DNA of 64,000 nt, taken from Eubacteriales bacterium. GTDB taxonomy: Bacteria; Bacillota; Clostridia; Oscillospirales; CAG-272. Below the pieces are notes generated by a model. The model saw nothing but the letters and a program-made list of their open reading frames with translations, did no database searches and had not been told where the DNA came from. Below are positions 16,140 to 50,927 of this stretch, in pieces. The stretch covers positions 24,412 to 88,411 of the forward strand of contig JAZPZY010000029.1 in NCBI GenBank assembly GCA_045544955.1. The letters are read 5' to 3'. Within the stretch, counting starts at the first letter, position 1; each line of letters begins with the position of its first letter. The translations under genes and the position numbers were made by a program.

Positions 16140-16141
16140 TA

Positions 16142-20030: not shown

Positions 20031-20065
20031 ACTGCAGAAAAATCATTTCCGAAAGGAGCAAACGT

Positions 20066-26889: not shown

Positions 26890-27794
26890 AAACAACCAAA
26901 GAAATCACTGAATTGCTGTCCCGGTGCCGGCACGTGGACTCCCACGTGCACACCCATCTTTGCGACGGACAGGCAGATATGACCGTTTTAAGTATCGCCG
27001 CCGCCGCCAAAGAGAAAAGCGTGGACGGCATTATCCTCACCCCTCATTTTCACAAAGCAGTGCATGACGAGACGGCAGCGTGGTATGACGATACGGACGA
27101 AAGCATCTTTCTTTCCCTGCGAGAAGAGATCGACCGCTACGAACGTGATGACGGATCGGTACGGTTTATCCTTTCCACGGAAACGGATATTCTGAATCTT
27201 GACGGGGAACTGTCTCTCCACCCCTCACCCGAAACAGAGCGCGCCCTCGATATGATCGCACCTACGCTGAACTATCATCCCTGCCTTCCGCTTATTTTCG
27301 TGGGTCTGACCACGGGGAAGAGGATTGACGGACTGCACGACAGCGGCATGTATGGGGAGGCCGCCGCAAAGCTGGGCGGCATCGGCGAGGTGTTGTCCCT
27401 TGCCTTTGAAACCGAGATCAATGCGGTAAAGAAATGCCCGTACCCTGCCATGCTGGGACACCTGTTTATGCCCTATTCTTTTCATCCGCGCCGGAACAAC
27501 TGCTTTGGTGCCACGCCGGAGCATCTTTCGGGGATGAAAAAGGAGGTGAGACGTCTGCTCTCCGCGTGCCGGGAAAAGAACGTTATCGTGGATCTCACCG
27601 GCGTTCACGTGGCGGAAGGTCAACGCGCGGAGGAGAAAATAGAAAACAATGGATTCCTTGTGGAATTTCAGAAATTCGCTATCCGTGAATGTGAGAATCT
27701 CGGTGTCACGGCGTATTTCGGAAGCGATGCCCACAGCCTTGCCGGCATTGGAAAGAGTGCCGATTATTACCGGCTGCTGTACGGAAATCCATAA
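26886..27794 (+). CDS. PHP-domain metal-dependent phosphoesterase (second, divergent)
   Basis: ATGA overlap with the upstream gene. DSHVHTHLCDG N-terminal motif, TPHFH, and GSDAHS near the C-terminus. Confidence 0.65.
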   Translation: MKTTKEITELLSRCRHVDSHVHTHLCDGQADMTVLSIAAAAKEKSVDGIILTPHFHKAVHDETAAWYDDTDESIFLSLREEIDRYERDDGSVRFILSTETDILNLDGELSLHPSPETERALDMIAPTLNYHPCLPLIFVGLTTGKRIDGLHDSGMYGEAAAKLGGIGEVLSLAFETEINAVKKCPYPAMLGHLFMPYSFHPRRNNCFGATPEHLSGMKKEVRRLLSACREKNVIVDLTGVHVAEGQRAEEKIENNGFLVEFQKFAIRECENLGVTAYFGSDAHSLAGIGKSADYYRLLYGNP

Positions 27795-35278: not shown

Positions 35279-35409
35279 TCCGATTTCTCCCCTCGCATTT
35301 TTCTTCATTATAACACTTTTTTGTGTGCATTTCTTGCTGTTCGTTGCAAAATATATTGCATTTTTTGCGATTTTCTGTTACCATATAAAAAACGGGCAGG
35401 AGGAGAACG

Positions 35410-36237
35410 ATGAGCGGTACGATCTATAAATTTGAGAGGGAAATGCTGAAGGGGGAAGACATCCACATCCGGAAAAAGAGCGATAACGCTTATTACAAAA
35501 AGCATTGGCACAACTATTTTGAGATTATCTATTACAAGAACTGTGCAGGCTATTGCTCTTTGAACGGGATGGAATACCCGCTGCGGGGGAACTGCCTCTT
35601 TTTTCTCACGCCCAGTGACTTTCACCAAATCGTAACAGAGGAGGTACCGGATTCTTACGCACTGATCATTTCCTTCAGCGAGCAGATCGCAGATAAAAAA
35701 ATACTGGAAAAGCTCACCGGAGAGGCCATCGTGCTGTACGATCTTCCGCCGCTTCTCGCCGGGCAGATCGAAGAGCTGTACACGGTATTCAGCGGAAAAT
35801 CCGCCTTTCGGGAGAGATACCTCCATCACCTGCTCAACTGCATCCTGATCTGTATTCTGGAACAGGGACAGCGTGTGTTGCCGGCGGCAAAGGATATCCA
35901 TCCTATCGTCAGAGAAAGCATCGCGTATATGCTGGCTAATCCATCCGCACCTATCACGCTTCATACCTTTGCCGAAAAATTCTGCATTACGGAAGCTTAT
36001 TTCTCCCATCTGTTTCATGAGAACGCCGGCGTTTCCTTCAAGCAGTATCTGACCTCCTTGCGGATGGAGTGTGCCAAACGAATGCTGTCTGAAGGGGAGT
36101 TTTCCGTGATCGACGTGGGATTTGAGTGCGGCTTTGTCAGCCCGTCCCAGTTTTCCCGCAGCTTCAAAAAGCACACAGGCATGACGCCTTCGGAATACCG
36201 TGCGAAGAAGAACTCGGCGGCTGGAATGACGGGGTAA
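35410..36237 (+). CDS. AraC-family transcriptional regulator, divergent from the GH42 operon
   Basis: AGGAGGAG RBS. C-terminal HTH (ITEAYFSHLFHENAGVSFKQYLTSLRM...SQFSRSFKKHTGMTPSEYR). Confidence 0.85.
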   Translation: MSGTIYKFEREMLKGEDIHIRKKSDNAYYKKHWHNYFEIIYYKNCAGYCSLNGMEYPLRGNCLFFLTPSDFHQIVTEEVPDSYALIISFSEQIADKKILEKLTGEAIVLYDLPPLLAGQIEELYTVFSGKSAFRERYLHHLLNCILICILEQGQRVLPAAKDIHPIVRESIAYMLANPSAPITLHTFAEKFCITEAYFSHLFHENAGVSFKQYLTSLRMECAKRMLSEGEFSVIDVGFECGFVSPSQFSRSFKKHTGMTPSEYRAKKNSAAGMTG

Positions 36238-37769: not shown

Positions 37770-40700
37770 TTACGGAAAATCGATGGTGATCTTTGCAGTA
37801 TAGGTATTGCTCGTACCGCAGTTTGAGGCAAATACCACGTATTTATCCGGCAGTTCGGTGACGTTGTTTACCGTGAAGGTCATGGTTTTGATGGCGGCGG
37901 CATGACCGTTGTCCGCATACTGATGGCTCCACAGGGTATAGTCGTTGCCCGTTTTGCCCCACTGTCTGTCCGTCTTGATCTCTACGATCTTACCCTCGCC
38001 GTCGACCACCATAAAGTCGAACAGCCAGGAGTTCAGATTGAAGTTCACGTCCACGCGGAGTTTTTTCGCCTCTGCGTCAAAAGCGTATTCCACCTCGGCG
38101 GTCTTGCCGAAGGTTTTATAGTTGCCGGCCTTGTCCGAATTTGCCACGGTCAGTGCTTTTTCCCAATCTCCGTCGCTTACGGGCAGGGCCAGAACCTCCG
38201 CACGCACGTCTACGGTAACGGCGGCTTTTTCTTCCGCCACGGCCGGCGCTTCCTCCTTCGGCTTCTCGGCGAAGGGATCGATCACAGTGGGACCTACCTC
38301 GGAGATCATGGAAACGTTATCCACGTACACGGCGTTATGGCCGGAGGCGATATCCATCATGACGTTGCGGATCTCAAGCTGACTGAGGCCTTCCTTGGTG
38401 GGCTCAGCCACGATGTCCTCTGCCTTCAGGATCTCCTTACCGTCGATCTTGAAGACTGCGGCACCCTTACCGTCAAAGTCGACGGTCCAGGTATGGAACT
38501 TGTCATCTGCGGGAAGCTGGATCTTCTGCACGATATCGTCGCCGGCGCGGCTCTTCTGGGACAAGTGAATGACGGCGTTATTGCCGGCGGCATCCTTTTC
38601 CATGCCGTTCAGCACGAAATACAGAAGCGGAGCGCCCGGTGTGACGATCTCAAAGACCAGACCTCGCCAGGTAGGCAGCTTTGCGGGTATCATGAGCGAT
38701 TCGATCTTCAAATCCATCGAAAGCGTATAGGAGGTACCCACGCCGTTTGTGGGAATCAAAAGGCTGGCGTACCGCTGGGCATTTTTGGCCTCGCCGCCGA
38801 TATAGAGCTGTCCCTCAGGCACAGCCGCATCCATGGCGTGATCGGCAATGTAATATTCCGGGTATTTGTTTTCGCCCCGCTTTACGATGGGGCTGGCGAG
38901 AGAATCGCAGTCGTACTGGAAGATCACGCGCTTTCCGCCCGGATCCGTAACCTTGGCGGGCTGAGGCTGCACAAGGGACGTGGGATAGATAAAGTTATAC
39001 CACTTCATCATGCGGGTGGCGTTCTGCACGTTTTTGAACATGGCATCGGTGCCCGACCAGTTGAAGGTGAACACGCCGTCCGCACCGGCCGCATAGAAGT
39101 CGTAGATGCGGAGCATGATGTCCATTGCGTCCACGGACTCACCGCCCCGGACGCTTCCGCCGGCGGCAAGGAGATCCTCCTCTGCCTTGGTCAGATCGTG
39201 GCCGGAGAGCGTAGCGTTTACGCCCAGGTAGAATTCCACCTCGGGATGCTCGTCAAAGTAGGCGATATACTCATCGAAATCGAAGAAAGTCTCATGTCCC
39301 TGGGCGGAGATGTATACACGGTCAACCCAGCCGTTTTCCACCCAATCCTTATAGTTAAGGCCCCAGCCCAGCGCCAGCTCCTGCACGGGATCAAGAACAC
39401 GCACGGTGAGCTTCTTGCCCTTCGGCAGATCGTCATGCACGCTCTTCACGAACTCGTTCATGATTTTGGTACGTTCTGCCACGTCCTTCACCTCGTCGCC
39501 GAAGATCCAGTAGTAGCGGCCGAAATCCATGAGGATACCGGTCACGTTTTCCGGCTGTGCCATTTCCACCAGAATATCGTGCAGATACGCACGGTATCCT
39601 TCGTGATAATAGCTGAGCTGTCCGCCGCCCTCTCTCACCCATTCGGGATGGAGGTGATAGAGAGAGCCGGTCATGAAGGCGTAGTCTGTGCCCATGAAGT
39701 GGGACATACGGAGAGATACGTAGAACTGGCCGTCCTCGATCTGCTCCGCCATCATATCGGAGAGAACCTTATGGGGATAGCCGATCTCGTTCAGTGCACG
39801 CATATTGGCGTAGGCATTCTTATCGAGATTACGCATGATCTCGTCGAACTCCAGATGCTCACCCTCGGTATTCACGTGGTCAAGGAAATCCTTGGGCCAC
39901 TTTCCCTCGGGGATATTCAGCTCCTTCAGGCGAGCTTCCACGTGCTTCCACCACGCTTCACTGTTATAGTTCAGTATGGAGGTGGAGAAGGTGCACCAGA
40001 TAAACTGACGCTGGTCGATGTAGGAGTACGGCTGGCTGAAATCCTCGCTGTACAGCGACTCGTAGTTGCCGTTTCTGGTATTGCAGAGGGTGGAATAGCC
40101 GTCGTTGTCGGTGATGAAGGTATGGCTGTCGTCCTCTTTTACGGCGATCTCATACAGCTCGTCGGTGAGGGATACGAATTTCAGATACGCGATCTGTGCT
40201 GTCTTAAGCGGTATGTTTTCAAGGGTGATGCCCGCGCCGTCCGCATCCAGCACGGTGATAAACGCTTCCACGATATTGGTGCTTGCCTTGGCGGTGCCCA
40301 GGTCTGCCTCAGTACCGTTCAGGGTAATGCCCCGGGAGCCTTCCATATAGCCGGCGTACACGGCGTATTTACCGGTAAGCGTCACGGGAACGGTAAGTTC
40401 CTCCACCGTCTCCGAGGGCTGAATGCAAAGAGCAGCACCCTTACTGCTTCCGGTCTCATACTGTACGGTGTACCACTCCGAGCCATCGGCGATCTTCACC
40501 TTTTCAAGATCGTTGAACAGATACGCAACCCCTGCGTCCTCCGCCTTGATCTCCTCATCGGCGGAGACGTTCTTTACGTCCTTATACAGCCAGTAATCGA
40601 AAGTGTACGGCAGTGCATCGGCGTAATTCACTTCCACCGTGCAGAGGCCGGTGAAAGGAATATCCGTAAGCGTAACAGGGACGGCGACGTCCTCCGGTGT

Positions 40701-41690
40701 CAGATCGACGGTCACTGCTTTCTCTTTATCCCCGCGGGGATAGACGGACAGGGACAGTTCGGCCTCCTCCACCAGGCGGTTCAGTTTGGGGGTAACGGTG
40801 AATTTGCCGGCTGTGGCATCAGATGCCACAGCGACTGTTTCGATTTTTGAATAATCCAGCACGGTGCCTTCCGTCACCTTGATATTATCAAAAGTAACGG
40901 AGTTGCCGGTGGAATCCTCCGTCATTTCCATCATAATGTTTTTGAACAGGAATTTGCCGCCCGTACCCTCGTGGTAACCGTCCACCTCCGGGAAATCCTT
41001 TACCAGTTCTCCGTCTATGGAAACGCGGAGCATGCTTACCCCGTCGTACTGGAAGGTCCATTTATGGAACGCGTCGTCCGTGGGGATGGCGATCCGCTCC
41101 ACGTACGCCACGTCAGAGCCGCGCTCCATCTTGGAAACACGGAGGGTAGCGTTCTTGCCGTCCTCGTCCGGCTCGCCCATGTCCTGCAGCACGATATAAA
41201 CAAGCTTATTGTCCGGCAGCTCAAACTCCATAACGAAGCCGCGGAACATAAGGTTCGCCATAGGCGTGAGCAGCGCGTCGATCTTCATATCGATATCGAT
41301 GGTACATGCGGCGTCGGTCATGGCACGGGGGGAGGTGATCGTCATGGTGGCGTAGCGGCCGCCCTTTTCACCGCCCATGTAAACGGTGCCTTTTTCCACG
41401 CCTTGTGTGGTCAGATCGGCAAAATAATAGTCCGGATACTTATTGCCGGAAACGGCAGTCACGGACGGATCCAGATAGTTGCAGTTCCAGTTGAAGAGCA
41501 ATTTTCCGGCCGGCTTTTCCTCTTTTTTTGCGTCCTCTTTCTTTGCGTCCTCTGCCTTTGCGGCGGTTTCGGCTTTTTCGGTTTCTGCAGCGTCTTCCGC
41601 GTGCACCGGCCGGCTGAACGTGGGCAGAACGCCCGCCAGCATGACCGCCGCCAGAAGAAACGCGCAGATTCTCATTTGCATACGCTTCAT
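37770..41690 (-). CDS. Giant secreted protein, paralog of 22153-26082 (LamG-like, TIM-barrel-like, LamG-like, beta-sandwich)
   Basis: 1306 aa. Signal peptide with an SPase I-type site (PVHA-ED), not a lipobox. Lys/Glu/Ala-rich linker. Long identical runs with paralog 1 (DDSHTFITDNDGYSTL, IDQRQFIWCTFSTSILNY, GYPHKVLSDM, LPKGKKLTVRVLDP, FYAAGADGVFTFNWSGT). Confidence 0.8.
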   Translation of the reverse strand: MKRMQMRICAFLLAAVMLAGVLPTFSRPVHAEDAAETEKAETAAKAEDAKKEDAKKEEKPAGKLLFNWNCNYLDPSVTAVSGNKYPDYYFADLTTQGVEKGTVYMGGEKGGRYATMTITSPRAMTDAACTIDIDMKIDALLTPMANLMFRGFVMEFELPDNKLVYIVLQDMGEPDEDGKNATLRVSKMERGSDVAYVERIAIPTDDAFHKWTFQYDGVSMLRVSIDGELVKDFPEVDGYHEGTGGKFLFKNIMMEMTEDSTGNSVTFDNIKVTEGTVLDYSKIETVAVASDATAGKFTVTPKLNRLVEEAELSLSVYPRGDKEKAVTVDLTPEDVAVPVTLTDIPFTGLCTVEVNYADALPYTFDYWLYKDVKNVSADEEIKAEDAGVAYLFNDLEKVKIADGSEWYTVQYETGSSKGAALCIQPSETVEELTVPVTLTGKYAVYAGYMEGSRGITLNGTEADLGTAKASTNIVEAFITVLDADGAGITLENIPLKTAQIAYLKFVSLTDELYEIAVKEDDSHTFITDNDGYSTLCNTRNGNYESLYSEDFSQPYSYIDQRQFIWCTFSTSILNYNSEAWWKHVEARLKELNIPEGKWPKDFLDHVNTEGEHLEFDEIMRNLDKNAYANMRALNEIGYPHKVLSDMMAEQIEDGQFYVSLRMSHFMGTDYAFMTGSLYHLHPEWVREGGGQLSYYHEGYRAYLHDILVEMAQPENVTGILMDFGRYYWIFGDEVKDVAERTKIMNEFVKSVHDDLPKGKKLTVRVLDPVQELALGWGLNYKDWVENGWVDRVYISAQGHETFFDFDEYIAYFDEHPEVEFYLGVNATLSGHDLTKAEEDLLAAGGSVRGGESVDAMDIMLRIYDFYAAGADGVFTFNWSGTDAMFKNVQNATRMMKWYNFIYPTSLVQPQPAKVTDPGGKRVIFQYDCDSLASPIVKRGENKYPEYYIADHAMDAAVPEGQLYIGGEAKNAQRYASLLIPTNGVGTSYTLSMDLKIESLMIPAKLPTWRGLVFEIVTPGAPLLYFVLNGMEKDAAGNNAVIHLSQKSRAGDDIVQKIQLPADDKFHTWTVDFDGKGAAVFKIDGKEILKAEDIVAEPTKEGLSQLEIRNVMMDIASGHNAVYVDNVSMISEVGPTVIDPFAEKPKEEAPAVAEEKAAVTVDVRAEVLALPVSDGDWEKALTVANSDKAGNYKTFGKTAEVEYAFDAEAKKLRVDVNFNLNSWLFDFMVVDGEGKIVEIKTDRQWGKTGNDYTLWSHQYADNGHAAAIKTMTFTVNNVTELPDKYVVFASNCGTSNTYTAKITIDFP

Positions 41691-41752: not shown

Positions 41753-42841
41753 TCAGACATCAGTAGTTTGCTCTTTTTTCAGTGCGTGTCGGTAGAGAAA
41801 ATGGGCAGCGGCTGCGGCACAGATACCGCCGATCAGTTTTCCGAGGATCATGCCGTCGAGAAACGTGTCGTCAAACGCCATGGTAAACGCAAGATGATCC
41901 CCGAACACAAAGGAAGCGGATACCGCGAACGCCATGTTCATCATGATTCCCTTGGCATCCATTTTTTCGATCATGGCAAACATGGGAATGCTGTTGGACA
42001 AAGAGGCAATCAGTCCCACGACGGACGTCTCGTTGATCTTCAGCAGTTTTCCGAAAGCAATCAGCGGCTTTTTCAGAAGCCGCGATGCGATGGCGATCAG
42101 CGGGAATACCCCAGCCAGCGTAACGGCAATGCCCCATACCGATTCAAACGCCACCCCAATGGATTCCATGTGAGGGATCAGTTTGATACCGGTGAAATAG
42201 TCAAAAATGCCTGCCGCCAGGCCGATGGTGATTACGATTACCACAATATTGCCGATGACAGAGAAGATCTTCCGGCTTACGTCCGCGTTCCATATCAGTC
42301 CGAGGCACACAATACCGGACATAAGGATCACCGGAAGAAGATTCCAAAGCAGAGCGAGAGGCGGACATCCCTCGATTAAACCGCCCGCGATGCAGCCGAG
42401 CGGCATGGTTACAATACCGCAGAGGATGCCGTTTAAGATATCCTTGTGGTATTTTTTATCCACGGTGCGAAGGGGAACCGGAACGGTAAAGCAGATGGTA
42501 ACGCCCAGCATGGAGGCAACGATCAATCCGTTAAACCCGCCCCATACCGTATCCGGGGACAACTGCTTTGCCAGCGGGGCACCGCCCATGTCGTTGGCAA
42601 GAAATCCTGCGACGAAGGACGGATCCAGGTGAAGCAGATCGGACAGCGGTCCGAACACGGGAATGATGACTTTTGAAAGCGTAGGAGCCAAAACGATCAT
42701 ACCGATCATAGCCATAGCCAGAGAGCCGGTGGCGAGGATGCCCTTTTCAAACTCTTCGCCGATTTTCAAATGGTTGCCCGTGATCCGGTCAAGGGCACCG
42801 AGAAGGGCAAACACGCCGAGAACGATTTGCAGAATATTCAT
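41753..42841 (-). CDS. eutH: EutH-family permease (ethanolamine-utilisation-protein-H-like membrane protein)
   Basis: Polytopic membrane protein colinear with E. coli EutH from memory: ALDRI, FEKG...AMAMIGM..LAPTL, DPSFVAGFLANDMGGAPLAK, IPMFAMIEKMD..G, AFAVSASFVFGDHLAF, GKLIGG. Start probably the second ATG (42841; GGAGG 7 nt upstream). Confidence 0.8.
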   Translation of the reverse strand: MNILQIVLGVFALLGALDRITGNHLKIGEEFEKGILATGSLAMAMIGMIVLAPTLSKVIIPVFGPLSDLLHLDPSFVAGFLANDMGGAPLAKQLSPDTVWGGFNGLIVASMLGVTICFTVPVPLRTVDKKYHKDILNGILCGIVTMPLGCIAGGLIEGCPPLALLWNLLPVILMSGIVCLGLIWNADVSRKIFSVIGNIVVIVITIGLAAGIFDYFTGIKLIPHMESIGVAFESVWGIAVTLAGVFPLIAIASRLLKKPLIAFGKLLKINETSVVGLIASLSNSIPMFAMIEKMDAKGIMMNMAFAVSASFVFGDHLAFTMAFDDTFLDGMILGKLIGGICAAAAAHFLYRHALKKEQTTDV

Positions 42842-42860
42842 CGTCATTCCTCCGTAAAGG

Positions 42861-45380
42861 TCAGTACAGAATTTTTACGGGACCGTACAGTCCGCTTTCC
42901 AGGGAATCGGCGTGGAAAATATTTTCTCTGCCGTGATAAGGGGTCAGCTGCCATTTTTGCCATTTGTCGAAGGAGTCGGTGTGAAGATATTCGTTGGCAC
43001 CCGTGTTGGATACGCGGATTTCCAGAAGATTCTCTTCCTTCAGCAGATCAGTCGGAATGTCAATGCAGTAAGGCTCCATCGTTTTTATCCCAACGGACGT
43101 ACCGTTTACGAATACTTCGCAGGAGCAGCGGACTTTTCCCAAATCCAGACGGATCCGGGATGCCTTTTCGGGCAGGGTAAACCGGGTTTTGTATATGCCG
43201 CTTCCGGAAAACGCCTTTCCCACGTAGCGGCTCCAATCGCCCGGTACTGCCGGCATCTCCGGCTCACTGAGCGTCCGGGTTTCGTATTCCATGGCACCAA
43301 CAACAAACTGATCAATGGGACGGAAGAGGAAGTTTTCGAGAACCAGTTCCCGGCGAAGGATATCCTCTTTTTCCGTTTCTGCCGGCATGTCGCCCTGCCA
43401 CAGGAAAAGAATCCGGCCGACGGGCAGAGTGAAGGTGGAGGATTCCGGTGCAAAAATCCGGCCGTTTTCCGCCTCCAGCACGTAAATGGAGCCGGGGAGG
43501 GAAACGTCAAAGGTGACTTCCGTGGCGGCTTCATTGAAGAGCATATACAGGGTGCCGTTGTCACAGTGACGGACACAGAGACGGAGCAGATCGGTTTCGC
43601 CCGAAACGGTGATGGACGTGGGAGCCAGGGATTCGATGCTGTCCATGACAGCCGCTTTTTCTAATCCGTCCGGTACGGTATCGGCAAGGACGAAGACCTT
43701 GCCGCCGCCGGCCATAAACCGACGGAGCACCGCTTTTACTTTCTCGGGCATGAAGCGACATTCCGGCACGACTACCGTGCGGTAGCACGTTTTGCCCATG
43801 ACAATTTTTCCCGCATCCGTCTGTTTTTCATCCGCAAGCAGGAATACGTCATCATCTGCAACGTCAAAGAGGAGACGGGCGTTTTCCATTTTTTTAGCCG
43901 CCGCTTCAAAGGCCTCTGCCGCCAGTGCGTTATCCTTTCCGGACAGAAGATCGGGCACGGGCATATACAGGGCAGTATCGGCAGCTCGCTCACCCAGCGA
44001 GGCGAGGTAGGACAGACGTTCCGCATATTCGTTGAAAACGGAAAGATCCCGATAGCAAGCGTGTTTTTCGGTGAAATAGGGAAGCTCGCCCATCATCAGA
44101 AAACCGCGGCGCCAGTACGGAACGGCAAAGAGGTTGAACAGATTTATACCGCGGACGGCCTGGTAATTCAGTACGTACCGCATCTGATTGTAATCGAGTC
44201 CCTCCCCGTATACACCGAAGGATTCGGTCATGGCATACCGCTCGCCTGCCTGGGCGGCGGCAGAGGAAGCATACCGGGGGAAGAAGGTGTTCAGTGCCTC
44301 TCTTTTTTCGGCGGGGTTTTCCTTGATCTCGGGGAAGATCTGCCGCCAGATCACGTCAACGCCCGGGATGTCAAAGCAGCGGAGTGCACGGAGAAGGTTG
44401 AAATTACCCGAATCGGTGCACGCCCGATAGGCGGTGTGGTCCAGATCCATGTGCCCGGTGAAGGCCATGCCGTGCCGGTTGGCCCAGTTCTTGTTACGGA
44501 GCATGAAATTCTCACAGAACAGCCGGCTGCACAGATCAAACCAGGCGATCCTTGCAAGACTGCCTTCCCGTGTGGGAACGCGGGTGCCCGCAAGATCCGG
44601 CAGGAATTTTCGTATGCTGTAACCGTTCTCTTTTTCAAAAAGATCTTCGATTTCTTTCCGGAACGGCACCTTACGGGGCGTGGTGGGCTCATCGGTGAAA
44701 ACCGCCAGAATATTCTCTCCCAGCAGATCCTTGAGATAGGGCTTGTAGGCTTCGTGGGTCATCTCGATAAACTTGTCCGTGGCCTCTGCCAGCGTGGCGT
44801 CCGGCAATTCGGGGATCGCTTCGCCGAAGCGTTCCTTATGGTAACAGTATTCGGTGATTTCGCAGTCGGCGGCGAAAACGTGTCCGCTTTCGATGGGTGT
44901 GTCTCCGTCAAGAAGGGCAAGTGCCACGTCCTTTTGTGCCTCGTACACGTCCCCCTTGGAAAAGGCGGCCTTGCGTGCGGAGAGACTCTGTCGGCCGTAT
45001 TCGGGATATTCGTTCATCACCTTGCCGCAGGCACCGCCGGAGGGCCAGCCGCCCTCGCCGTAAAACCACATATACATACCGCGTTTTTTCATCTCTTCGG
45101 CGGCATAGCGATATTCTTCAAAATAGGGTTTCGTGAGGTAATCCGGCTCCAGCATGGTGGGGATACTCTCCGGGCGGAACGTCTTGGGCTCTGCAATGAT
45201 AGCGATGGCTTTGATGCCCAAACGCTGCATTTCGTCCAGTTGGCTGTCGATCTCCTCCCGGGTGATGGGGCCGTTCCAGATCCAGTTATAGACCGGGGAG
45301 TGAAGGGAAGACGGGGATTTGAAATCTGTTTCGGAAAAAGTGTTTTTCTCGCTGTACAGCTTTTTTACGATGCTTTCCAT
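42861..45380 (-). CDS. Large cytoplasmic glycoside hydrolase, GH106-like (alpha-L-rhamnosidase-type) with a C-terminal galactose-binding-like domain
   Basis: 839 aa with no signal peptide. N-terminal PVYNWIWNG...GIKAIAII... and WFYGEGGWPSGGA recall GH106-type glycosyl hydrolase proteins. The C-terminal GSGIYKTRF...VFVNGTSVG resembles the GH2-type sugar-binding jelly roll. Family assignment is tentative. Confidence 0.5.
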   Translation of the reverse strand: MESIVKKLYSEKNTFSETDFKSPSSLHSPVYNWIWNGPITREEIDSQLDEMQRLGIKAIAIIAEPKTFRPESIPTMLEPDYLTKPYFEEYRYAAEEMKKRGMYMWFYGEGGWPSGGACGKVMNEYPEYGRQSLSARKAAFSKGDVYEAQKDVALALLDGDTPIESGHVFAADCEITEYCYHKERFGEAIPELPDATLAEATDKFIEMTHEAYKPYLKDLLGENILAVFTDEPTTPRKVPFRKEIEDLFEKENGYSIRKFLPDLAGTRVPTREGSLARIAWFDLCSRLFCENFMLRNKNWANRHGMAFTGHMDLDHTAYRACTDSGNFNLLRALRCFDIPGVDVIWRQIFPEIKENPAEKREALNTFFPRYASSAAAQAGERYAMTESFGVYGEGLDYNQMRYVLNYQAVRGINLFNLFAVPYWRRGFLMMGELPYFTEKHACYRDLSVFNEYAERLSYLASLGERAADTALYMPVPDLLSGKDNALAAEAFEAAAKKMENARLLFDVADDDVFLLADEKQTDAGKIVMGKTCYRTVVVPECRFMPEKVKAVLRRFMAGGGKVFVLADTVPDGLEKAAVMDSIESLAPTSITVSGETDLLRLCVRHCDNGTLYMLFNEAATEVTFDVSLPGSIYVLEAENGRIFAPESSTFTLPVGRILFLWQGDMPAETEKEDILRRELVLENFLFRPIDQFVVGAMEYETRTLSEPEMPAVPGDWSRYVGKAFSGSGIYKTRFTLPEKASRIRLDLGKVRCSCEVFVNGTSVGIKTMEPYCIDIPTDLLKEENLLEIRVSNTGANEYLHTDSFDKWQKWQLTPYHGRENIFHADSLESGLYGPVKILY

Positions 45381-45490: not shown

Positions 45491-46954
45491 TTACTGCGGC
45501 AGTGCCATAATCTGAGCTGCCAGCGATTTCAGGGCGGCATTCGTTCTTTCCGTATGGGTTGCCATCCAGGATGCCAGATCCGAAGCCTGGGTCAGCGTCA
45601 TGGGAATCTCTGTTCCAATGTCACAGTACATATACATATAGCCGAAATCGCAGTACAGGTTGGACAGGGCGATATCCAGCATTTCGCGGGAGGTTGCATC
45701 ATTTACGTATTTGTAGGACAGTGCCACGTCGAAATATGCGGGACGCATGATCTTGTAGGCTCCGGCTGCCAGTGCTTCCAGAATGATGGAGGTGGTTCTG
45801 ACGTTGCCCGTGGTAACAGGGATGCAGGAAATAGCAGGCAGCGTTGCCGCACCGTACTCCATATCGTCCGTGAACTTGGGCGTAGGCAGAAGACCGAACT
45901 TGCCGCCGTCTCGCAGAACCTGGCTGCTGGCGTTGCTCAGAAGACTTATCATAAACAGAATACGGTTGTTATTGAATCCGTCGAGCATGATTGCGGTATC
46001 GCGTGCCGGCTGCCCGTAGGTGGCAAAACTTTGATACCAGTTGGCATCAAAAATCTTATGTACGGTGTCAAAGGCACCTATAAGACGGTCATCCATGTCG
46101 GAAACTCTGAGCGTTCCGTCCTCGTTGGTGGTGATAAAGGTGTATCCCGTAGTGTAAACCTGTTGGAACCAGGCATCCTGACGGCCTGCCATGCCGTAGA
46201 TATCACTGTCATCATATATGCCGTCGTTGTTTACGTCGGAACCGACGGATTCGCAGATCTCCATCAGTTTGTCGTAGGTCCACGTGCCGTCGTAGACCAT
46301 CTGGTATATATCACCTACATTGTAATTTTCGGCCATCTCCATGTTGAAGAACAGGATGGAGGAGCGGCTGATGGTATTGAAATCAAACCAGCTGGATACA
46401 CCGTACAGACGGTTACCTACGCGCAGATTATCGATCACGTAGTTGAAATGCCACGGTTTCTCAAAGTCCAAAATCTCGTTGTCAGCCAGGTTGAGAAAAC
46501 AGCCTGCAGGCATAAAGGGGGTCAGATACGTTCCTATGTGATTCACAAGGTCAACCCGGTCACCAGCGAGGATGTTGGACTGCAGTGCGGTAAGACGGGG
46601 ACCGTTTGCCGCATCGCCGGCAGCACCGGTTCTCCAGTCAAGCACAACGTCAAATCGGCTCTCCACCTCGGCGTTTCGTTTATTGGTGGCTTCCGCTACT
46701 ACATCGCCTTCTTTGTCGGGATCGGGATTGAAGATATTCGTGTACTCGTTGTGTCCGCACCAGATAATGATTTCTTCATTGCCAAAGGTTTCCGCGGGAA
46801 GATTATCAGCCAGGGCGGGATCTTCCGTTTCAGCGGGATCGGTGGCTTGTGTGGTTTCTGCGGGATCGGTGGTTTCTGCGGGGGCGGGGTTCTTCGTGCA
46901 GGCGGCAAGTCCTGCCATCATCACGAGAACCATCAGAAGAGACAAGATACGCAT
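45491..46954 (-). CDS. Lipoprotein, ABC-type solute-binding-protein-like (orphan, copy 2)
   Basis: Lipobox GLAAC. 487 aa. Long identical runs with copy 1 (VYDGTWTYDKLMEICESVGSDVN, LRDGGKFGLLPTPKFTDDMEYG, MRPAYFDVALSYKYVNDATSR). Confidence 0.7.
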   Translation of the reverse strand: MRILSLLMVLVMMAGLAACTKNPAPAETTDPAETTQATDPAETEDPALADNLPAETFGNEEIIIWCGHNEYTNIFNPDPDKEGDVVAEATNKRNAEVESRFDVVLDWRTGAAGDAANGPRLTALQSNILAGDRVDLVNHIGTYLTPFMPAGCFLNLADNEILDFEKPWHFNYVIDNLRVGNRLYGVSSWFDFNTISRSSILFFNMEMAENYNVGDIYQMVYDGTWTYDKLMEICESVGSDVNNDGIYDDSDIYGMAGRQDAWFQQVYTTGYTFITTNEDGTLRVSDMDDRLIGAFDTVHKIFDANWYQSFATYGQPARDTAIMLDGFNNNRILFMISLLSNASSQVLRDGGKFGLLPTPKFTDDMEYGAATLPAISCIPVTTGNVRTTSIILEALAAGAYKIMRPAYFDVALSYKYVNDATSREMLDIALSNLYCDFGYMYMYCDIGTEIPMTLTQASDLASWMATHTERTNAALKSLAAQIMALPQ

Positions 46955-47017
46955 GGTCGAAAATTCCTTTCAGAAATGAATTTGTTTATTCTGTACGCTG
47001 ACAGTATGGGGCTTTTT

Positions 47018-48115
47018 TCATTTCTCGTTCGTCTGATTGTAGGTGGGGAAAAGCTCCCGCCACACGTCCGTATGCGCTTCGCAGTCCAGATAATGGGCGA
47101 ATTTTGCATTCTGCCGGTCGGTTGAGGCTGCCCCGTACGCATCGGCTACGGTGCTCAGGTAGTTTTCTTTCACGCTCTCGCAGAAGGCGTGCCAGCCCGC
47201 TTTCCATGCGCCGGTTCTGAGTTCCTCATTCCGTTCAGCAAACGATGCCAGAATCCGCTCTTTTTCTTCCCCCTTGGCGAGCGCGATGCCGTTTCCCTCC
47301 GGAGATGCCGTGAAGGGAATGAAGTCGATTTCGTTGGTTTTCGTGTCGTATTTTACGGCAAGAGACGTATTCCATACGTCACCGTCCACGGCAAAGGCGG
47401 GACTGATAAAGTGGAAATTTCCCTGTCCGTACAGGATGTGACCGCCTGCAAACTGCTCATAGCAGCCGATGCAGTGGCTGTGCTGGCAGAGCACCACGTC
47501 CGCACCGTTTTTCACCATGGCGCGGCAGGCCTTGTAAAGCCGCGGCGACGGATAGCGGCAGTGCTCCTTGCCGCCGTGATAGATCACGATCACCCGGTCG
47601 TTCTGCTTTTTCGCCTCTGCGATATCTTCCATGGTATCGTATTCGTCATAAGGGCGGGAGCCCATCCGGTCATCGAGGGCGTAGGAATATTCATGCTCGC
47701 ATACGGCGATGATCGCCACCTTTTCGCCGTCCTTTTCAAAGACGATATTCTTTCGCGAATCGGCATAGTTGTCACCGAAACCTGTATAGGAAAGACCTGC
47801 CTTGTCGAGAAGGGCGAAGGTGTCCTTTACCCCTTTTATCCCGAAATCGAAAAAGTGGTTGTTGCTGAGGCCGCAGCAGTTGACGCCGATGCCGGCCAGA
47901 ACCTCTGCTACCTCCGGCGCTGCCTTCAAAGCGGGGCCGAATTTTTCAATTTCCTTTTCGCTTTCCGTCAGAACGCATTCCAGATTGACGAAATTTATAT
48001 CGTTTCCCTGAAAGACGGGCAGTGTATCCATGAAGAGCTTTCCGGTTTCCTTATTATGAAACAACGGATTGGTAACTTGAGTGGGAGAGAGATCCCCCAG
48101 CAGCAAAGCTTTCAT
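47018..48115 (-). CDS. CapA/PGA_cap-family metallophosphatase-like protein (cytoplasmic)
   Basis: 365 aa. Motifs FVNLECVLT, GLSNNHFFDFG, VIYHGGKE and CQHSHC are typical of CapA-family proteins. No signal peptide or TM segment. Has its own TGaTACAAT promoter-like sequence upstream. Confidence 0.7.
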   Translation of the reverse strand: MKALLLGDLSPTQVTNPLFHNKETGKLFMDTLPVFQGNDINFVNLECVLTESEKEIEKFGPALKAAPEVAEVLAGIGVNCCGLSNNHFFDFGIKGVKDTFALLDKAGLSYTGFGDNYADSRKNIVFEKDGEKVAIIAVCEHEYSYALDDRMGSRPYDEYDTMEDIAEAKKQNDRVIVIYHGGKEHCRYPSPRLYKACRAMVKNGADVVLCQHSHCIGCYEQFAGGHILYGQGNFHFISPAFAVDGDVWNTSLAVKYDTKTNEIDFIPFTASPEGNGIALAKGEEKERILASFAERNEELRTGAWKAGWHAFCESVKENYLSTVADAYGAASTDRQNAKFAHYLDCEAHTDVWRELFPTYNQTNEK

Positions 48116-48223
48116 AAACGTTCCTTCTTTCCGCGTTTTTATTTTGTTTGGATAATTGTATCACAAAAAGTCCAAAACAACAATGAACTATATTGAGAGG
48201 AAATATAGATTTTATGAACGATT

Positions 48224-50122
48224 TTAGTCCGTTACGCTGCGGATCACGTGACGCAGCACCGCCGTATGCCGGCTGATCACCGTATCAAATACCGTATGTA
48301 TTTCGGGCTTGTGTTCGAAAACATATTTCCGCTGTTTTTTCACCAGCTTATCTTTGGTTTTGTCATCGTGCAGGGTGCAGGCGGCGATCAGATCGCAGTA
48401 GAGCAGGCACATTTTCGCATGGTGCATAAGGAGGTTCCAGTTCTTGCACCTGTTCTGCTTTTTTTGAATGAACGCGCGGGAGAACGCCCGGATGAGTGCC
48501 TTTGCCTCTTCGCAGTTTTTTAGTATGATCTCTTTGTTTTTGTGTTCTTCAAACTTGTACAGGTCAAGCAGATCACTCAACTTCCGCAGGTAGGATGCAA
48601 CCTCGCCACCCAGCGCGCCGAAATCCGCCGCGTAGTATTCGTCACAGATTTCTTCAAAGTCAGCCTCCTTGTTCCACAGTGTTTTCGCCATGGCGTAGGC
48701 GGCGATGCCGGTGGGGAAGGCTGCCTGATTCACCTGACAGCTGATCATGCCGTTCAGCCCGATTTTTTCGAGATTTGCCATATCCAGGTGGATTATTTTT
48801 GCTATATTATAACATCCGGGATCGGCGTACTGGGCTTCGTACAGATGATAGTCAAAATCAAAACTGTCCCCGCCGAACAGCTCCTGCCAGGGCTTCAGCA
48901 TAGCAAGATTTTCGCCCACCTTTTTGGGGAAGACGAGCTTGTTGCGCACGTAGGGCGGTACCTCAGCCTTTTCCGATTCGTCGTGATCCGTAAACGTCTT
49001 TCCGTACGTTCGGGTCAGCGGCGCGAACATCATGATAAACCGGTCGGGATTCGTAAAGCGGATATGCTGGGGCGCCCACAACAGATCCACATATACGAGG
49101 AACACGATCTTGACGTCCATATTGTTTTCGGTGAGCTTGCGGTCCAGCTCATTCAGCAGCATGACGTAATAATCGGCGGGGCGCATTTTTGCACATTCTG
49201 TGCATTCGCAGTTGTTGTTTTCTCCGTCGCCAAGCCAGACGTGCATATGGGAAATTTCCGGATGTTTTTTACAGTGCGCCACCACGGCATCGGTGATTTT
49301 CTCCCGTACGACGGGATTGGAAAAGCACAGATTGGAGTTGAGGGGCTGTCCGTTCCAGAATTTCCGCTCCCCGTCCAGCTGTGCGAGATACGGTGCAATG
49401 GAGTCGGGAATCGTGTCTACCTTCTGCCAGTCGGTGCAGTGGATGCCGAAGGGTTCGCATGTCCAGGAGTGTCCCACCGCCTGATAGTGGAGCCCCCGTT
49501 TTACGATCTCCTCCTCCAGCCGTTTCACGATATGATCCACGTCATCATCACTGACCGGCGCGGCGGGGATCACGGAGGTCCCGCCGTAATTATACCAGCG
49601 CTTGAAGAATTCACTGGGAGTCTGAAACTGGATATAGTACGAGTTCATGCCCACCTTGGGCAGCCATTCGATGGTATTGTATACATGCTCATAGCTTACC
49701 TCGCCCTCGATGCAGATACCCCGGTGGCGGTAGGAGGGAGATTCGTTTACCTGTACGGTAATCTTTTCTTTTTCCAGCGTGAGGGAGGGAATCCTCTCGC
49801 CGTCCTTGCCGGGATATACAAAGCGGCAGCCCAGGGCAAACAGCAGACGGTACACCGCCATCAGTACAGAGCGTTCGTTGGAACCGGTGACAATACCGCC
49901 GCCGTTCAGGATGTCTATAAATATGGTGTCGTCGTCTGAGGCGGGGACACTGCCGTCCAGTCCTACCCAGAGAATATCCTTGCGTGCGGGATCTCTTTCA
50001 TCGTAGACCCGGGCATCAATGAATGCGGTTGGATCCATTTGTTTCAGATACTTTGCAAGTTCATCAAAAGCATACTGTATGGTGGGGCTTTTGCCGATAC
50101 GTGCGAGAATCAGGTTCGTCAT
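48224..50122 (-). CDS. DUF4838-like protein (putative glycoside-hydrolase-like TIM barrel)
   Basis: Start at MTNLILARIG (AAAGGTG 6 nt upstream). About 632 aa. RHRGICIEGEVSYEH...WLPKVGMNSYYIQF recalls DUF4838 / GH20-like N-terminal plus TIM architecture. Assignment is from memory. Confidence 0.45.
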   Translation of the reverse strand: MTNLILARIGKSPTIQYAFDELAKYLKQMDPTAFIDARVYDERDPARKDILWVGLDGSVPASDDDTIFIDILNGGGIVTGSNERSVLMAVYRLLFALGCRFVYPGKDGERIPSLTLEKEKITVQVNESPSYRHRGICIEGEVSYEHVYNTIEWLPKVGMNSYYIQFQTPSEFFKRWYNYGGTSVIPAAPVSDDDVDHIVKRLEEEIVKRGLHYQAVGHSWTCEPFGIHCTDWQKVDTIPDSIAPYLAQLDGERKFWNGQPLNSNLCFSNPVVREKITDAVVAHCKKHPEISHMHVWLGDGENNNCECTECAKMRPADYYVMLLNELDRKLTENNMDVKIVFLVYVDLLWAPQHIRFTNPDRFIMMFAPLTRTYGKTFTDHDESEKAEVPPYVRNKLVFPKKVGENLAMLKPWQELFGGDSFDFDYHLYEAQYADPGCYNIAKIIHLDMANLEKIGLNGMISCQVNQAAFPTGIAAYAMAKTLWNKEADFEEICDEYYAADFGALGGEVASYLRKLSDLLDLYKFEEHKNKEIILKNCEEAKALIRAFSRAFIQKKQNRCKNWNLLMHHAKMCLLYCDLIAACTLHDDKTKDKLVKKQRKYVFEHKPEIHTVFDTVISRHTAVLRHVIRSVTD

Positions 50123-50174
50123 GGTAAACACCTTTCTTTTTGGTTTTGTCAGACGCTGACGCGAAAAAATAAAA

Positions 50175-50927
50175 TTATCCCATTTTTCTCATTTCCATGG
50201 GCGTACGGTCAAGGTATCTTCTGAACAGTCGGGAGAAATAGTTGTAGTTGTCAAAGCCAAGGAGCTGCGAAATTTCCGAAAGCGGCATGTCGCTCCCCGT
50301 AACAAATTCCTTTGCCACCAGCATTTTCTGCTCGTTTATATAACTTGTCAGGGTTTTGCCCGTCTCCCGGCGGAAAATGTAAGAAACGTATTCCCGGGAG
50401 AGATTCAGCTGTGCACTGATGCTTTGCAGAGTGAGCTTTTCGGTACATTTTTCATCTACGATTTTGAGTATCGTGTTTACGTACGCATTCTGTGAGCGGA
50501 GGGAGTTTTTCTCAAGAAGTTCCAGCAGAATGTAGTTGAGAAGATTGGCGATTTTTGTCTTTTGGAAAGGATCGGGCGGAATATGGCTGTACGGGAACAC
50601 CTGTATCAGCCGTTTCATATCCGCGGTAAAACTGTCCGGTAGATAGGCGGGAAGGGAGGGATCAAAACCGTCAAAGGCCTCGAAATTAAAACTCACGTAC
50701 CGCACAGGTGCGTCTTCCTGCTTCCGCTCCCGTATCATGCCCGGCTTTATAAAGATCGCATCGTTTTTGTTCAGAACGTACGTAGTGCCGTTTACGCCGT
50801 ACGTGATGCTGCCTTCCAAAACAAAGGTAAGATCGTAATAGGCGATCGGCTTTGGTGTGATCACAAAGCATCCCGGCAGCTTCACGTTGCAGTAGTGCAG
50901 AAGATTCTTTACGATGTATTGTTCCAT
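50175..50927 (-). CDS. AraC-family transcriptional regulator at the head of module 2
   Basis: AAGGAGG RBS. Cupin-like N-terminus and C-terminal HTH (LSREYVSYIFRRETGKTLTSYINEQKM...YNYFSRLFRRYLDRTPMEMR). Confidence 0.85.
   Translation of the reverse strand: MEQYIVKNLLHYCNVKLPGCFVITPKPIAYYDLTFVLEGSITYGVNGTTYVLNKNDAIFIKPGMIRERKQEDAPVRYVSFNFEAFDGFDPSLPAYLPDSFTADMKRLIQVFPYSHIPPDPFQKTKIANLLNYILLELLEKNSLRSQNAYVNTILKIVDEKCTEKLTLQSISAQLNLSREYVSYIFRRETGKTLTSYINEQKMLVAKEFVTGSDMPLSEISQLLGFDNYNYFSRLFRRYLDRTPMEMRKMG

Follow-up and report, generated by a model that had tools for sequence, protein, structure and literature searches.

EutH proteins have been described in Salmonella and E. coli (b2452), Listeria, C. 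difficile, and Enterococcus, where the partners of this canonical EutH are ethanolamine ammonia-lyase and the BMC shell. Ethanolamine uptake is the sole function for which the family is known, and ethanolamine is described as depending on canonical EutH to enter the cell only when the pH is acidic (PMC7677406). The known L-rhamnose transporters are RhaT (DMT), RhaFGHJ (ABC), and RhaY (MFS), and there are many genomes to which none can be assigned (PMC3870299). RhaT, RhaY, RhaFGHJ, and the rhamnogalacturonide permease RhiT (acting with the cytoplasmic RhiN) take up rhamnose or short rhamnosides for cytoplasmic processing, i.e., they have the same role as is proposed below for a EutH-family permease that has no sequence relationship to any of them and a different fold. 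The permease is encoded in the stretch of DNA analysed here, 64 kb in its whole length and referred to as the window.

The earlier note on this DNA recognized in the gene product a clear EutH homolog, which holds true: all four sequence blocks quoted there are found in the translation, and the Pfam profile PF04346 matches the protein with E = 2.8e-108 (362.7 bits, cut-off 25) over its full length (residues 4–350, profile positions 3–350 of 351). The same profile is covered in full by canonical EutH, and EutH from the eut operons of Bacillota belongs to the same length class (~360 aa) and bears the same D-M-G-G, N-x-I-P, and G-D-H-L motifs. The ORF containing the gene extends over 41753..42847 (-) and comprised 364 aa before the start was corrected. 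The second ATG, at 42841, is taken as the start because GGAGG lies 7 nt upstream, and the ATG at 42847 was rejected because GGAGG is only 1 nt away. The protein of 362 aa thus defined agrees with the coordinates in the earlier note and is 100% identical to a database entry (P0001). The coordinates of the features of the locus are given in Table 1.

Table 1. Features of the EutH locus (positions within the window).
Feature	Positions	Strand	Details
EutH-family (PF04346) permease CDS	41753..42841, stop codon included	(-)	362 aa
Ribosome-binding site GGAGG	42849..42853	(-)	read directly from sequence
GH106-like (alpha-L-rhamnosidase family) glycoside hydrolase	42861..45380	(-)	839 aa
Orphan ABC-type sugar-binding-protein-like lipoprotein	45491..46954	(-)	487 aa, lipobox LAAC
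PGA_cap (CapA-like metallophosphoesterase-fold) protein	47018..48115	(-)	PF09587, 174.7 bits
DUF4838 protein	48224..50131	(-)	635 aa, PF16126 51.7 bits
AraC-family regulator with cupin sensor domain	50175..50927	(-)	HTH_AraC, HTH_18, weak Cupin_2
Giant 2	37770..41690	(-)	1306 aa, signal peptide, no Pfam domain

The permease is polytopic, with 9 hydrophobic segments and ~10 TM helices arranged in two homologous halves. Its AF2 model (pLDDT 90.6) is all helical and contains an internal repeat (residues 2–90 vs. 197–287, z = 4.8) in which the two tip motifs align; each half has a short segment, a broken helix or a hairpin, with a conserved motif at its tip (ANDMGG in one half, SNSIP in the other). 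Two repeats are likewise present in carriers of the elevator type, whose re-entrant hairpins are paired (NaS1 and VcINDY of DASS/SLC13, GltPh, and CitS) and which have in common with the window protein short broken helices and small-residue or Asn/Ser tip motifs at equivalent positions. A PDB sequence search with the protein gave no match, and a Foldseek search of the PDB with the model gave nothing significant, the best being NaS1 (TMq 0.43, E = 0.044). Because no structural or sequence match is significant, the likeness to elevator carriers is treated as no more than a lead, and the protein is not assigned to them.

As the earlier note had stated, the window carries no gene for ethanolamine ammonia-lyase, a microcompartment, or a eut regulator. 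When all genes called in the window were scanned with Pfam, neither an ethanolamine ammonia-lyase nor a BMC shell protein, an ANTAR protein, or a histidine kinase was detected, and phmmer searches of its ORFs in all six frames with E. coli EutA, B, C, K, L, M, N, E, D, J, T, R, and G produced no match except EutH itself. With the same queries, 89 related loci (L001–L089) were searched alongside the window. A eut gene within ±10 kb was found at none of the 80 loci of orthologues from species-level Clostridia genomes (47–99% identity), nor within 10 kb at any of 9 additional loci, those of metagenomic homologues that are closer, whereas all six eut-linked control loci (those of C. difficile, Listeria, Cetobacterium, Acetoanaerobium, Brevibacillus, and Fusobacterium, with full eut operons) were positive, EutA, B, C, L, M, N, E, and T being recovered. 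Thus, unlike canonical EutH, neither the protein in the 64 kb nor its relatives in L001–L089 are encoded in or next to a eut operon. Eut-independence is a property of the whole clade and not of a local rearrangement.

A neighbor-joining (NJ) tree with 100 bootstraps agrees with the gene contexts. The eut-linked EutHs group together near the E. coli protein, and the window clade with its sister representatives forms a separate group (85% support), so that eut-linked and non-eut-linked proteins are set apart; clustering with canonical EutH, which in the earlier note would have spoken against recruitment of the family to another solute, is not observed. When compared with E. coli EutH, the eut-linked proteins of Bacillota and Fusobacteriota score 349–382 bits vs. 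203–223 bits for five close relatives of the window protein (L091–L095). A family-wide alignment of 30 sequences proved too diverse for scanning the genome collection, and one of six sequences was used. The window protein itself is 37% identical to EutH from E. coli, 44.5% to that from Listeria, and 47% to that from C. difficile. It stays under the cut-offs of all four curated NCBIfam models of EutH (375.3/482, 312.6/387, 236.4/574, and 182.1/575 for the equivalogs NF011665, NF011667, and NF011668 and the subfamily NF011666 taken together), which is weak evidence from a strict test because ten family representatives (P0121–P0150, mostly of unknown context) fall short of them as well.

There are some points in favor of regarding the protein as a normal ethanolamine permease whose eut catabolic genes are located at another site in the genome, with rearrangement or operon shuffling as the cause of its current position: databases name clade members “ethanolamine utilization protein EutH”, the window protein is 47% identical to EutH from the C. 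difficile eut operon, the motifs are shared with eut-linked EutH, and the DNA viewed amounts to 64 kb of the genome. This reading is nevertheless highly improbable in view of the clade-wide lack of eut neighbors with positive controls, the separate position in the tree, the NCBIfam scores (with the reservation just made), and the retention of the junction between the EutH gene and its upstream neighbor in a close relative (see below). The database name is probably misleading for the window protein, which very probably serves glycan utilization and is not a component of an ethanolamine operon.

Despite this separation, the clade resembles eut-linked EutH at the core. About 70 alignment columns are common to the window protein and 7 eut-linked EutHs, including D84, G86, G87, N283, D315, and H316, and the core motifs D84-M-G-G, N283-x-I-P, and G-D-H316 are common to the clade and eut-linked EutH; 11 columns separate the two, most changes being conservative (K33E, S75A, A109G, L136A, S253T, and A318G are among them). 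The shared motifs imply either a chemically similar small substrate or a role of the motifs in coupling rather than in specificity. A literature search found no paper naming PF04346 or a EutH homolog, a EutH-like protein, or the EutH family, and nothing relevant was present among the matches listed for EutH together with rhamnose, pectin, rhamnosidase, or polysaccharide. The one paper that looked promising (PMC11496695) concerns a normal eut operon.

The neighborhood in the window was described with genes called by a self-trained codon-score caller. ORFs 45554–47125 and 47189–48196, picked by length-greedy ORF calling, are antisense and were rejected as genes; the wrong-strand ORFs 17999–20932 and 35308–36174 had no Pfam match. 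The placement of the EutH gene between a GH106-like hydrolase and the second of two giant paralogs, reported earlier, is correct. The stop codon of the GH106-like gene is separated from the EutH start by 19 nt, and no terminator was found between the two genes. The GH106 assignment is distant, with 53.2 bits for PF17132 (cut-off 29) and 49.5 bits for the rhamnoside jelly-roll domain (cut-off 50). The enzyme has neither an N-terminal hydrophobic segment nor a signal peptide and is predicted to be cytoplasmic on account of the latter. The GH106–EutH pair is a conserved unit, the sole part kept in the 98%-identical relative L010, which matches window positions 45296–41769 at 98.2% over 3528 nt; synteny then ends. 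Giant 2, which starts 62 nt downstream of EutH and is 59% identical to the product of 22153–26082 (+), is therefore not kept beside EutH in this closest relative.

Farther upstream, the same operon as that of EutH includes the gene of the PGA_cap protein, which lacks hydrophobic segments and is predicted to be cytoplasmic. The DUF4838 gene is first in the putative operon, and its product is predicted to be cytoplasmic, too. The AraC-family gene adjoins the operon directly upstream on the same strand and likely encodes its local regulator. Further window content identified with Pfam includes GH20, DUF4838, and CN-hydrolase. No rhamnose catabolic gene (rhaA, rhaB, rhaD, or rhaM) is present in the 64 kb.

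The earlier claim that EutH is the only transporter candidate in the 64 kb is right for membrane permeases and has to be amended for two orphan ABC-type binding lipoproteins, one encoded in the operon and the other at 27824–29287. Among called genes and six-frame ORFs, the only polytopic proteins are EutH and BlaR1 (4 segments), so no other polytopic permease is encoded there, and Pfam and hydrophobic-segment scans revealed neither an ABC permease nor an ABC ATPase in any part of the 64 kb. A hidden ABC transporter (one binding protein, two permeases) at 18684–22125, upstream of giant 1, was considered and rejected, since Pfam identifies the products as two GFO_IDH_MocA proteins and one xylose-isomerase-like TIM barrel.

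The lipoprotein belongs to a rare family of 45 proteins and is 75% identical to its paralog on the (+) strand, which is also 487 aa long. In a profile search it matches AbnE, a binding protein (6rjy, E = 1e-5), and its AF2 model (pLDDT 88.8) has over 1000 matches in the PDB, with sugar-binding proteins at the top (E ~1e-14). A bona fide sugar-binding-protein fold encoded in the same operon as EutH, in 64 kb devoid of ABC permeases and ATPases, may suggest that EutH is the membrane part of a binding-protein-dependent secondary transporter, to which the lipoprotein two genes upstream hands over an oligosaccharide. Such pairing would recall the TRAP and TTT transporters, in which a DctP or TctC binding protein works with the membrane proteins DctQM or TctAB; the window proteins are of other kinds, the lipoprotein having the ABC “MalE-like” sugar-binding fold and the permease being EutH-type. 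The paralog at 27824–29287 has no EutH partner, and at L187, where several paralogs of the lipoprotein are grouped with GH20 and GH78, the vicinity contains no EutH and no ABC permease. In the clustering of L001–L089 together with the window, the lipoprotein has the window paralog as its only relative. ABC permeases encoded elsewhere and shared, or a purely glycan-binding role at the cell surface, are simpler explanations, and a handover to EutH is scarcely to be expected. The same very low estimate applies to the combined proposal that the EutH fold serves carriers in general, the eut members being just one branch, and that the permease and the lipoprotein make up a new kind of binding-protein-dependent secondary transporter, which would take up a rhamnose-containing oligosaccharide in place of the ABC membrane and ATPase components missing from the 64 kb.

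What the permease may carry is best judged from its neighbors across the clade. Rhamnose-related genes make up 21/163 of the genes adjacent to EutH vs. 3/978 of those at a distance of at least 2. Since 15–16 of the 21 come from one synteny group, the independent juxtapositions number ~5–7. The families involved are GH106, GH78, GH78-like, RhaM, and RhaAB, with most clade members residing in other contexts. Sixteen loci have a GH78-like gene upstream of EutH, and downstream there is often a gene for a secreted rhamnogalacturonase-like (RGase-like) protein; GH78 is directly upstream of EutH in L008, the gene order in L005 is GH88/105–GH95–EutH–RhaM, rhaM is found 5 kb from EutH in L091, and in L075 the genes for RhaA (549 bits) and RhaB converge on that of EutH. 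Of the domain families in 98 putative operon partners, those of rhamnosidases occur most often (Bac_rhamnosid6H 16, GH106 2). The partner glycoside hydrolases are devoid of signal peptides, and the RGase-like, GH43/130-like, giant, and binding-protein-like proteins possess them. As a whole, the contexts in the clade are heterogeneous: many orthologues stand alone or beside housekeeping genes (SpoIIE, tRNA synthetases), and other neighbors are alanine dehydrogenase with FAD-oxidase, esterases, PHP phosphoesterases, and TrkAH.

This organization follows the same logic as the rhiT-rhiN and rha regulons (PMC3870299), in that some clade EutHs are found beside rhamnosidases, RhaM, or RhaAB; the cytoplasmic glycosidases take the place held by ethanolamine ammonia-lyase and the BMC shell beside canonical EutH. 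The preferred reading, which is tentative and is given a probability of about 0.45, is that the window EutH imports L-rhamnose or a short L-rhamnoside, as judged from gene context. It is equally tentative, and perhaps a shade more so, that the clade represents a previously unrecognized family of L-rhamnose/rhamnoside permeases. With E. coli RhaT and FucP as phmmer queries, no match was found in the window or in any of the loci; because of this lack of homology, a role in rhamnose uptake, if true, would be a case of non-orthologous replacement. Recruitment of EutH for a solute other than ethanolamine, suggested in the earlier note, thus gains support from the membership in a non-eut clade, and of the solutes proposed there, it is a sugar (L-rhamnose or a short rhamnoside) that the context supports best; an amino alcohol or a phosphoethanolamine-derived product is supported weakly, through the phosphoesterase neighbors and shared motifs.

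A small diol or amino alcohol is a possible substrate because the core motifs are nearly identical to those of eut-linked EutH, with the 11 discriminating columns mentioned above. The protein might then be not a sugar carrier at all and rather a facilitator that moves a small neutral or weakly basic C2–C3 solute in or out, such as 1,2-propanediol, glycerol, ethanolamine, or aminopropanol from phospho-decorated glycans. 1,2-Propanediol is a fermentation end-product of rhamnose and fucose, and the pdu operons encode a propanediol diffusion facilitator, PduF, of the aquaporin/MIP family. As a facilitator for a small polar metabolite tied to rhamnose or fucose fermentation, EutH would have the same kind of role as PduF, the two being unrelated in family and fold. 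Since the rhamnosidases are cytoplasmic, free rhamnose would form inside the cell, which fits this option, as does the need for canonical EutH solely under acidic conditions, a facilitator-like behavior (PMC7677406). PHP phosphoesterases adjoin EutH in 3–4 loci, the window operon includes PGA_cap, and Fe-alcohol dehydrogenases (Fe-ADHs) are convergent with EutH in 16 loci. However, the Fe-ADHs are encoded on the opposite strand and score ~105 bits to FucO and EutG alike, and are therefore generic neighbors, uninformative as FucO. Moreover, no pdu, eut, or glycerol-utilization gene is found nearby, and the tight same-strand coupling is with glycosidases and not with diol- or amine-metabolizing enzymes. 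Secreted enzymes (RGase-like, GH43/130-like, giant) flanking a glycosidase–permease pair also follow the classic logic of import, and a C2–C3 facilitator is, on balance, rather unlikely.

Import of another glycan-derived monosaccharide or amino sugar, e.g., glucosamine or galactosamine, or broad sugar transport with specificity varying by subclade, should be considered as well, as the vicinal amino-alcohol group of these amino sugars resembles ethanolamine. The closest non-identical orthologue (L001, 84% identity) is located beside genes for AraC, GFO oxidoreductase, NagA, and NagB, although NagA and NagB are divergent from it and 1.7–5 kb away, i.e., not in the same operon. Eleven loci have GH2 immediately upstream of EutH and a CE4 deacetylase in the vicinity; GH20, DUF4838, and CN-hydrolase of the window can be read in the same sense, and other EutH clades are associated with amine-bearing substrates through genes for Xaa-Pro peptidases and alanine dehydrogenase. 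Yet the enrichment by position concerns rhamnose-related genes specifically, and the window operon has no adjacent amino-sugar kinase or deaminase, so that an amino-sugar or broad-range carrier appears distinctly unlikely.

If import of L-rhamnose or a short rhamnoside is accepted, the locus can be pictured as follows. The permease, a member of a clade that is independent of eut and widespread among gut Clostridia of the Oscillospirales type, would be a EutH-family secondary carrier with ~10 helices in two homologous halves, presumably an ion-coupled importer. In this clade, the permease would have been recruited into carbohydrate-utilization loci. The window locus would then be an AraC-controlled glycan locus of the Gram-positive style, with EutH as its membrane step. 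Outside the cell, giant 2 and the binding-protein-like lipoprotein, secreted or held at the surface, would act on the glycan; EutH would bring a small product into the cell, and the signal-peptide-less GH106-like rhamnosidase, DUF4838, and PGA_cap proteins would carry the breakdown to its end in the cytoplasm. What is imported would be the substrate or the product of the GH106-like enzyme, whose gene is translationally adjacent to that of the permease.

For the EutH family, the main consequence concerns annotation. At least two large clades of EutH lack eut context, the window clade and a clade linked to Xaa-Pro peptidase and CorA genes that is abundant in human gut metagenomes. Sequences of the window clade automatically receive the name EutH, and the use of eutH as a marker would therefore over-call ethanolamine utilization in gut metagenomes. 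The representatives of PF04346 fall into 1309 clusters at 50% identity. No structure of EutH has been solved, and neither the PDB sequence search nor Foldseek detected a solved relative. A family that combines several natural specificities with near-invariant core motifs would be well suited for separating residues for coupling from those for specificity, with the 11 discriminating columns as candidate positions. Finally, if the import of rhamnose or rhamnosides is true, EutH would be the fourth, unrelated transporter family among the rhamnose systems, and it would supply the missing membrane step for the CAZyme loci of the poorly studied Oscillospirales (Acutalibacteraceae) that have no ABC, MFS, or PTS genes.

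The window's EutH homologue is encoded on the minus strand by an open reading frame spanning 41753..42847. A GGAGG box precedes its first in-frame ATG by only 1 nt and the second by 7 nt, so that translation is taken to start at 42841, as the earlier note had it, to give a protein of 362 aa. This protein, identical to database entry P0001, has nine strongly hydrophobic segments and is covered end to end by Pfam EutH (PF04346; 362.7 bits, E = 2.8e-108); every sequence block quoted when it was first recognised as a EutH homologue is found in the translation.

The gene belongs to a run of minus-strand genes extending from 50927 to 37770 (see the table). Only 19 nt, with no terminator-like site, separate the stop codon of the GH106-like hydrolase gene from the EutH start. 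In a related locus (L010), the EutH protein is 99% identical, and nucleotide identity of 98.2% covers exactly the GH106–EutH pair (window 45296-41769), synteny stopping at the EutH 3′ end. Since the match is confined to this pair, the conserved unit is the hydrolase plus the permease. Giant 2, the large secreted protein encoded downstream of EutH, is missing at the corresponding place in this 98%-identical relative and is, judging by the sequence comparison, a local addition. It shares 59% identity over its full length with giant 1; both giants are secreted and bear no Pfam domain.

Features of the window, with export signals where assessed individually
Feature	Position	Strand	Export signal
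BlaI/BlaR1 pair adjoining choloylglycine (bile-salt) hydrolase	2627-6307		
GH78 rhamnosidase adjoining GH20 hexosaminidase	6667-10788	+	
FAD_oxidored (PF12831), BNR_2 sialidase-like protein, DHDPS-family (NanA-like) lyase; KDPG aldolase and small P-loop kinase on the opposite strand	11687-16744		
GFO_IDH_MocA, xylose-isomerase-like TIM barrel (AP_endonuc_2), GFO_IDH_MocA	18684-22125	+	
Giant 1, 1309 aa	22153-26082	+	
Two PHP phosphoesterase-type genes	26110-27794		
487-aa lipoprotein	27824-29287	+	
Giant 2, secreted 1306-aa protein	37770-41690	-	signal peptide
EutH homologue	41753-42841	-	
GH106-like hydrolase	42861-45380	-	none
487-aa lipoprotein	45491-46954	-	lipobox
PGA_cap protein (phosphoesterase-type)	47018-48115	-	none
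DUF4838 protein	48224-50131	-	none
AraC regulator	50175-50927	-	
2126-aa protein with 3-keto-disaccharide hydrolase domain	56164-62544		

Every plausible gene in the 64 kb, as called by a codon-score gene caller, was scanned against Pfam. No ethanolamine ammonia-lyase, microcompartment shell protein or ANTAR/histidine-kinase pair was found, nor any ABC, MFS or PTS component, and in phmmer searches of all six-frame window ORFs with the E. coli K-12 Eut proteins (L090) the sole match was EutH itself. The reported lack of eut genes in the window is thus confirmed. BlaR1 is the only other polytopic protein, so the claim that EutH is the region's only transporter candidate holds for polytopic permeases; it does not extend to the two 487-aa lipoproteins, which have an ABC-type oligosaccharide-binding-protein fold. 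These are 75% identical, lack a Pfam match and belong to a rare family (45 members in a database of 5.8 billion sequences). Their profile matches the arabino-oligosaccharide-binding protein 6rjy (E = 1e-5), and the structural model (pLDDT 88.8) matches >1000 PDB chains, led by ABC sugar-binding proteins (E about 1e-14). The 64 kb encodes neither an ABC permease nor an ABC ATPase, and the paralogs in a related metagenome contig (L187) likewise have no ABC permease around them; there, a relative of the lipoprotein is accompanied at 10001-17436 by three more domain-less ORFs (494-500 aa), possibly its paralogs, beside GH20 and GH78. A EutH-type importer assisted by such a binding protein has a low probability.

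One alternative would be a canonical eutH displaced from its operon. A scan of one genome per species yielded 80 loci with relatives at 47-99% identity, all from Clostridia MAGs of animal and human guts (mostly Acutalibacteraceae, Oscillospiraceae and unclassified Eubacteriales), and nine more loci were taken from around the closest metagenomic homologues. Homologues of EutA, B, C, K, L, M, N, E, D, J and T were found within 10 kb in none of the 80 + 9 loci, the sole matches to Eut queries being generic Fe-alcohol dehydrogenases. The search method is sound, since the same queries recovered full eut operons in six eut-linked control loci, from C. difficile, Listeria, Cetobacterium, Acetoanaerobium, Brevibacillus and Fusobacterium (chromosomes filed as plasmids). 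Identity of the window protein to canonical EutH is 47% for C. difficile, 44.5% for Listeria and about 37% for E. coli. In a neighbour-joining tree (100 bootstraps), eut-linked sequences of two phyla form a tight cluster near E. coli, and the window clade lies with a sister group of uncharacterised representatives at the opposite end (85% support). Against E. coli EutH, eut-linked proteins of Bacillota and Fusobacteriota score 349-382 bits and five close window relatives (L091-L095) 203-223. The window protein falls below the curated cut-offs of all four NCBIfam EutH models, which are strict and also exclude ten other family representatives tested. Phylogeny and neighbourhoods, which the earlier note had proposed to compare, therefore set the window clade apart from eut-linked EutH, and the related loci, the controls and the tree speak against displacement. 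Ethanolamine transport proper, served by eut genes at another site in the genome, is a less likely rival than the small-solute reading given below. One Clostridia MAG (L014, 1207-4029) carries two EutH paralogs of different subclades with a single gene between them; adjoining genes encode a PHP phosphoesterase and an octopine-dehydrogenase-like protein.

Genes flanking all orthologues were clustered, and clusters that recurred were annotated. What directly precedes EutH in the same orientation differs between loci: a GH78-like protein in 16, where the permease is often also accompanied by a GH43/130-like protein and a secreted beta-helix protein of rhamnogalacturonase type; GH2 in 11; GH106 in the window and L010; GH78 of another kind in L008; and GH95 in L005, in the order GH88/105-GH95-EutH-RhaM. 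Elsewhere, the EutH gene faces rhaA (549 bits against E. coli RhaA) and rhaB convergently (L075) or lies 5 kb from rhaM (L091). As these juxtapositions involve non-homologous rhamnose genes on different branches of the clade tree, they represent at least five independent events. Rhamnose-related genes make up 21/163 of the permease's direct neighbours versus 3/978 of the genes two or more positions away in those loci. The usual Gram-positive layout runs from a secreted enzyme through an importer to a cytoplasmic exo-glycosidase. By signal-peptide prediction, the loci with such partners follow it: none of the glycosidases directly upstream has a signal peptide, and the RGase-like, GH43/130-like, giant and lipoprotein partners do. 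Some contexts do not fit rhamnose: many orthologues are stand-alone or sit beside housekeeping genes. In one subclade the permease gene is paired with those for alanine dehydrogenase and a GlcD-like FAD oxidase; in others the partner is an esterase, a PHP phosphoesterase or SpoIIE.

The AlphaFold model of the EutH homologue (pLDDT 90.6, pTM 0.87) is all helical with several short broken helices. Residues 2-90 align with 197-287 (z = 4.8 over shuffles), placing the ANDMGG and SNSIP motifs at equivalent positions. Neither sequence nor fold searches found a solved homologue (best Foldseek E = 0.044), the non-significant top matches being elevator-type carriers (SLC13/NaS1, GltPh, CitS). Taken together, these features lead us to regard the protein as a secondary carrier built of two repeats, with putative ion coupling and direction. 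We put at about 0.85 the probability that it is a eut-independent permease serving glycan utilisation. Given the carrier architecture and rhamnose neighbourhood, the function with the most support is uptake of L-rhamnose or of a short rhamnoside, which the adjacent cytoplasmic GH106-like enzyme would then process; this choice of solute is tentative, at slightly under even odds. Recruitment for a different solute, as first proposed, is thus retained in its sugar version, and the amino alcohol is less favoured by the neighbours.

The main rival reading retains a small polar substrate, with 1,2-propanediol, glycerol or ethanolamine itself as candidates. Only 11 alignment columns separate the window clade from seven eut-linked sequences, most of these changes are conservative (K33/E, S75/A, A109/G, L136/A, S253/T, A318/G and others), and the core motifs are identical. 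1,2-Propanediol is the product of rhamnose and fucose fermentation. For canonical EutH, a role in ethanolamine entry is reported chiefly at acidic pH (PMC7677406). The identical motifs may alternatively serve coupling and gating, with specificity set by a few subtle positions. An amino-sugar substrate is less likely than either a rhamnose-type or a small polar solute. Rhamnose transporters are known from three families, DMT, ABC and MFS, and in many genomes no such transporter is assigned (PMC3870299); with RhaT and FucP as phmmer queries, none of these loci gave a match. A search of the accessible literature returned no paper on EutH homologues outside eut operons and none tying them to rhamnose or pectin.

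The FAD_oxidored/BNR_2/DHDPS set and, after it on the opposite strand, the genes for KDPG aldolase and a small P-loop kinase resemble a distinct module for acidic-sugar catabolism, likewise without a transporter. The triplet directly upstream of giant 1 resembles gene sets of oxidative (3-keto) glycoside cleavage pathways; a 3-keto-disaccharide hydrolase domain also occurs in the 2126-aa protein. The GH78–GH20 arrangement recurs in L187 (17473-21461). Speculatively, GH78, GH20 and the phosphoesterase-type genes would fit breakdown of a rhamnose/HexNAc glycan with phosphodiester decorations, e.g., a bacterial cell-wall polysaccharide. The choloylglycine hydrolase gene is consistent with a gut origin of the organism.

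Finally, the EutH family comprises 1309 representatives at 50% clustering (E <= 1e-3). A second clade, 36% identical to the window protein and derived from human-gut metagenomes, has no eut gene nearby in 80 sampled loci (L107-L186); its EutH gene lies directly downstream of Xaa-Pro aminopeptidase in 19 loci and in a CorA-DUF5721-EutH arrangement in about 45, from an abundant human-gut organism. In Bacillus sp. F19 (L102, 9968-11035), a sigma-54 regulator and two Xaa-Pro peptidase genes precede a EutH homologue, again with no eut genes near. With no eut genes near EutH in either the window clade or the second clade, eut-independent clades are common, and the family name EutH probably over-specifies function.
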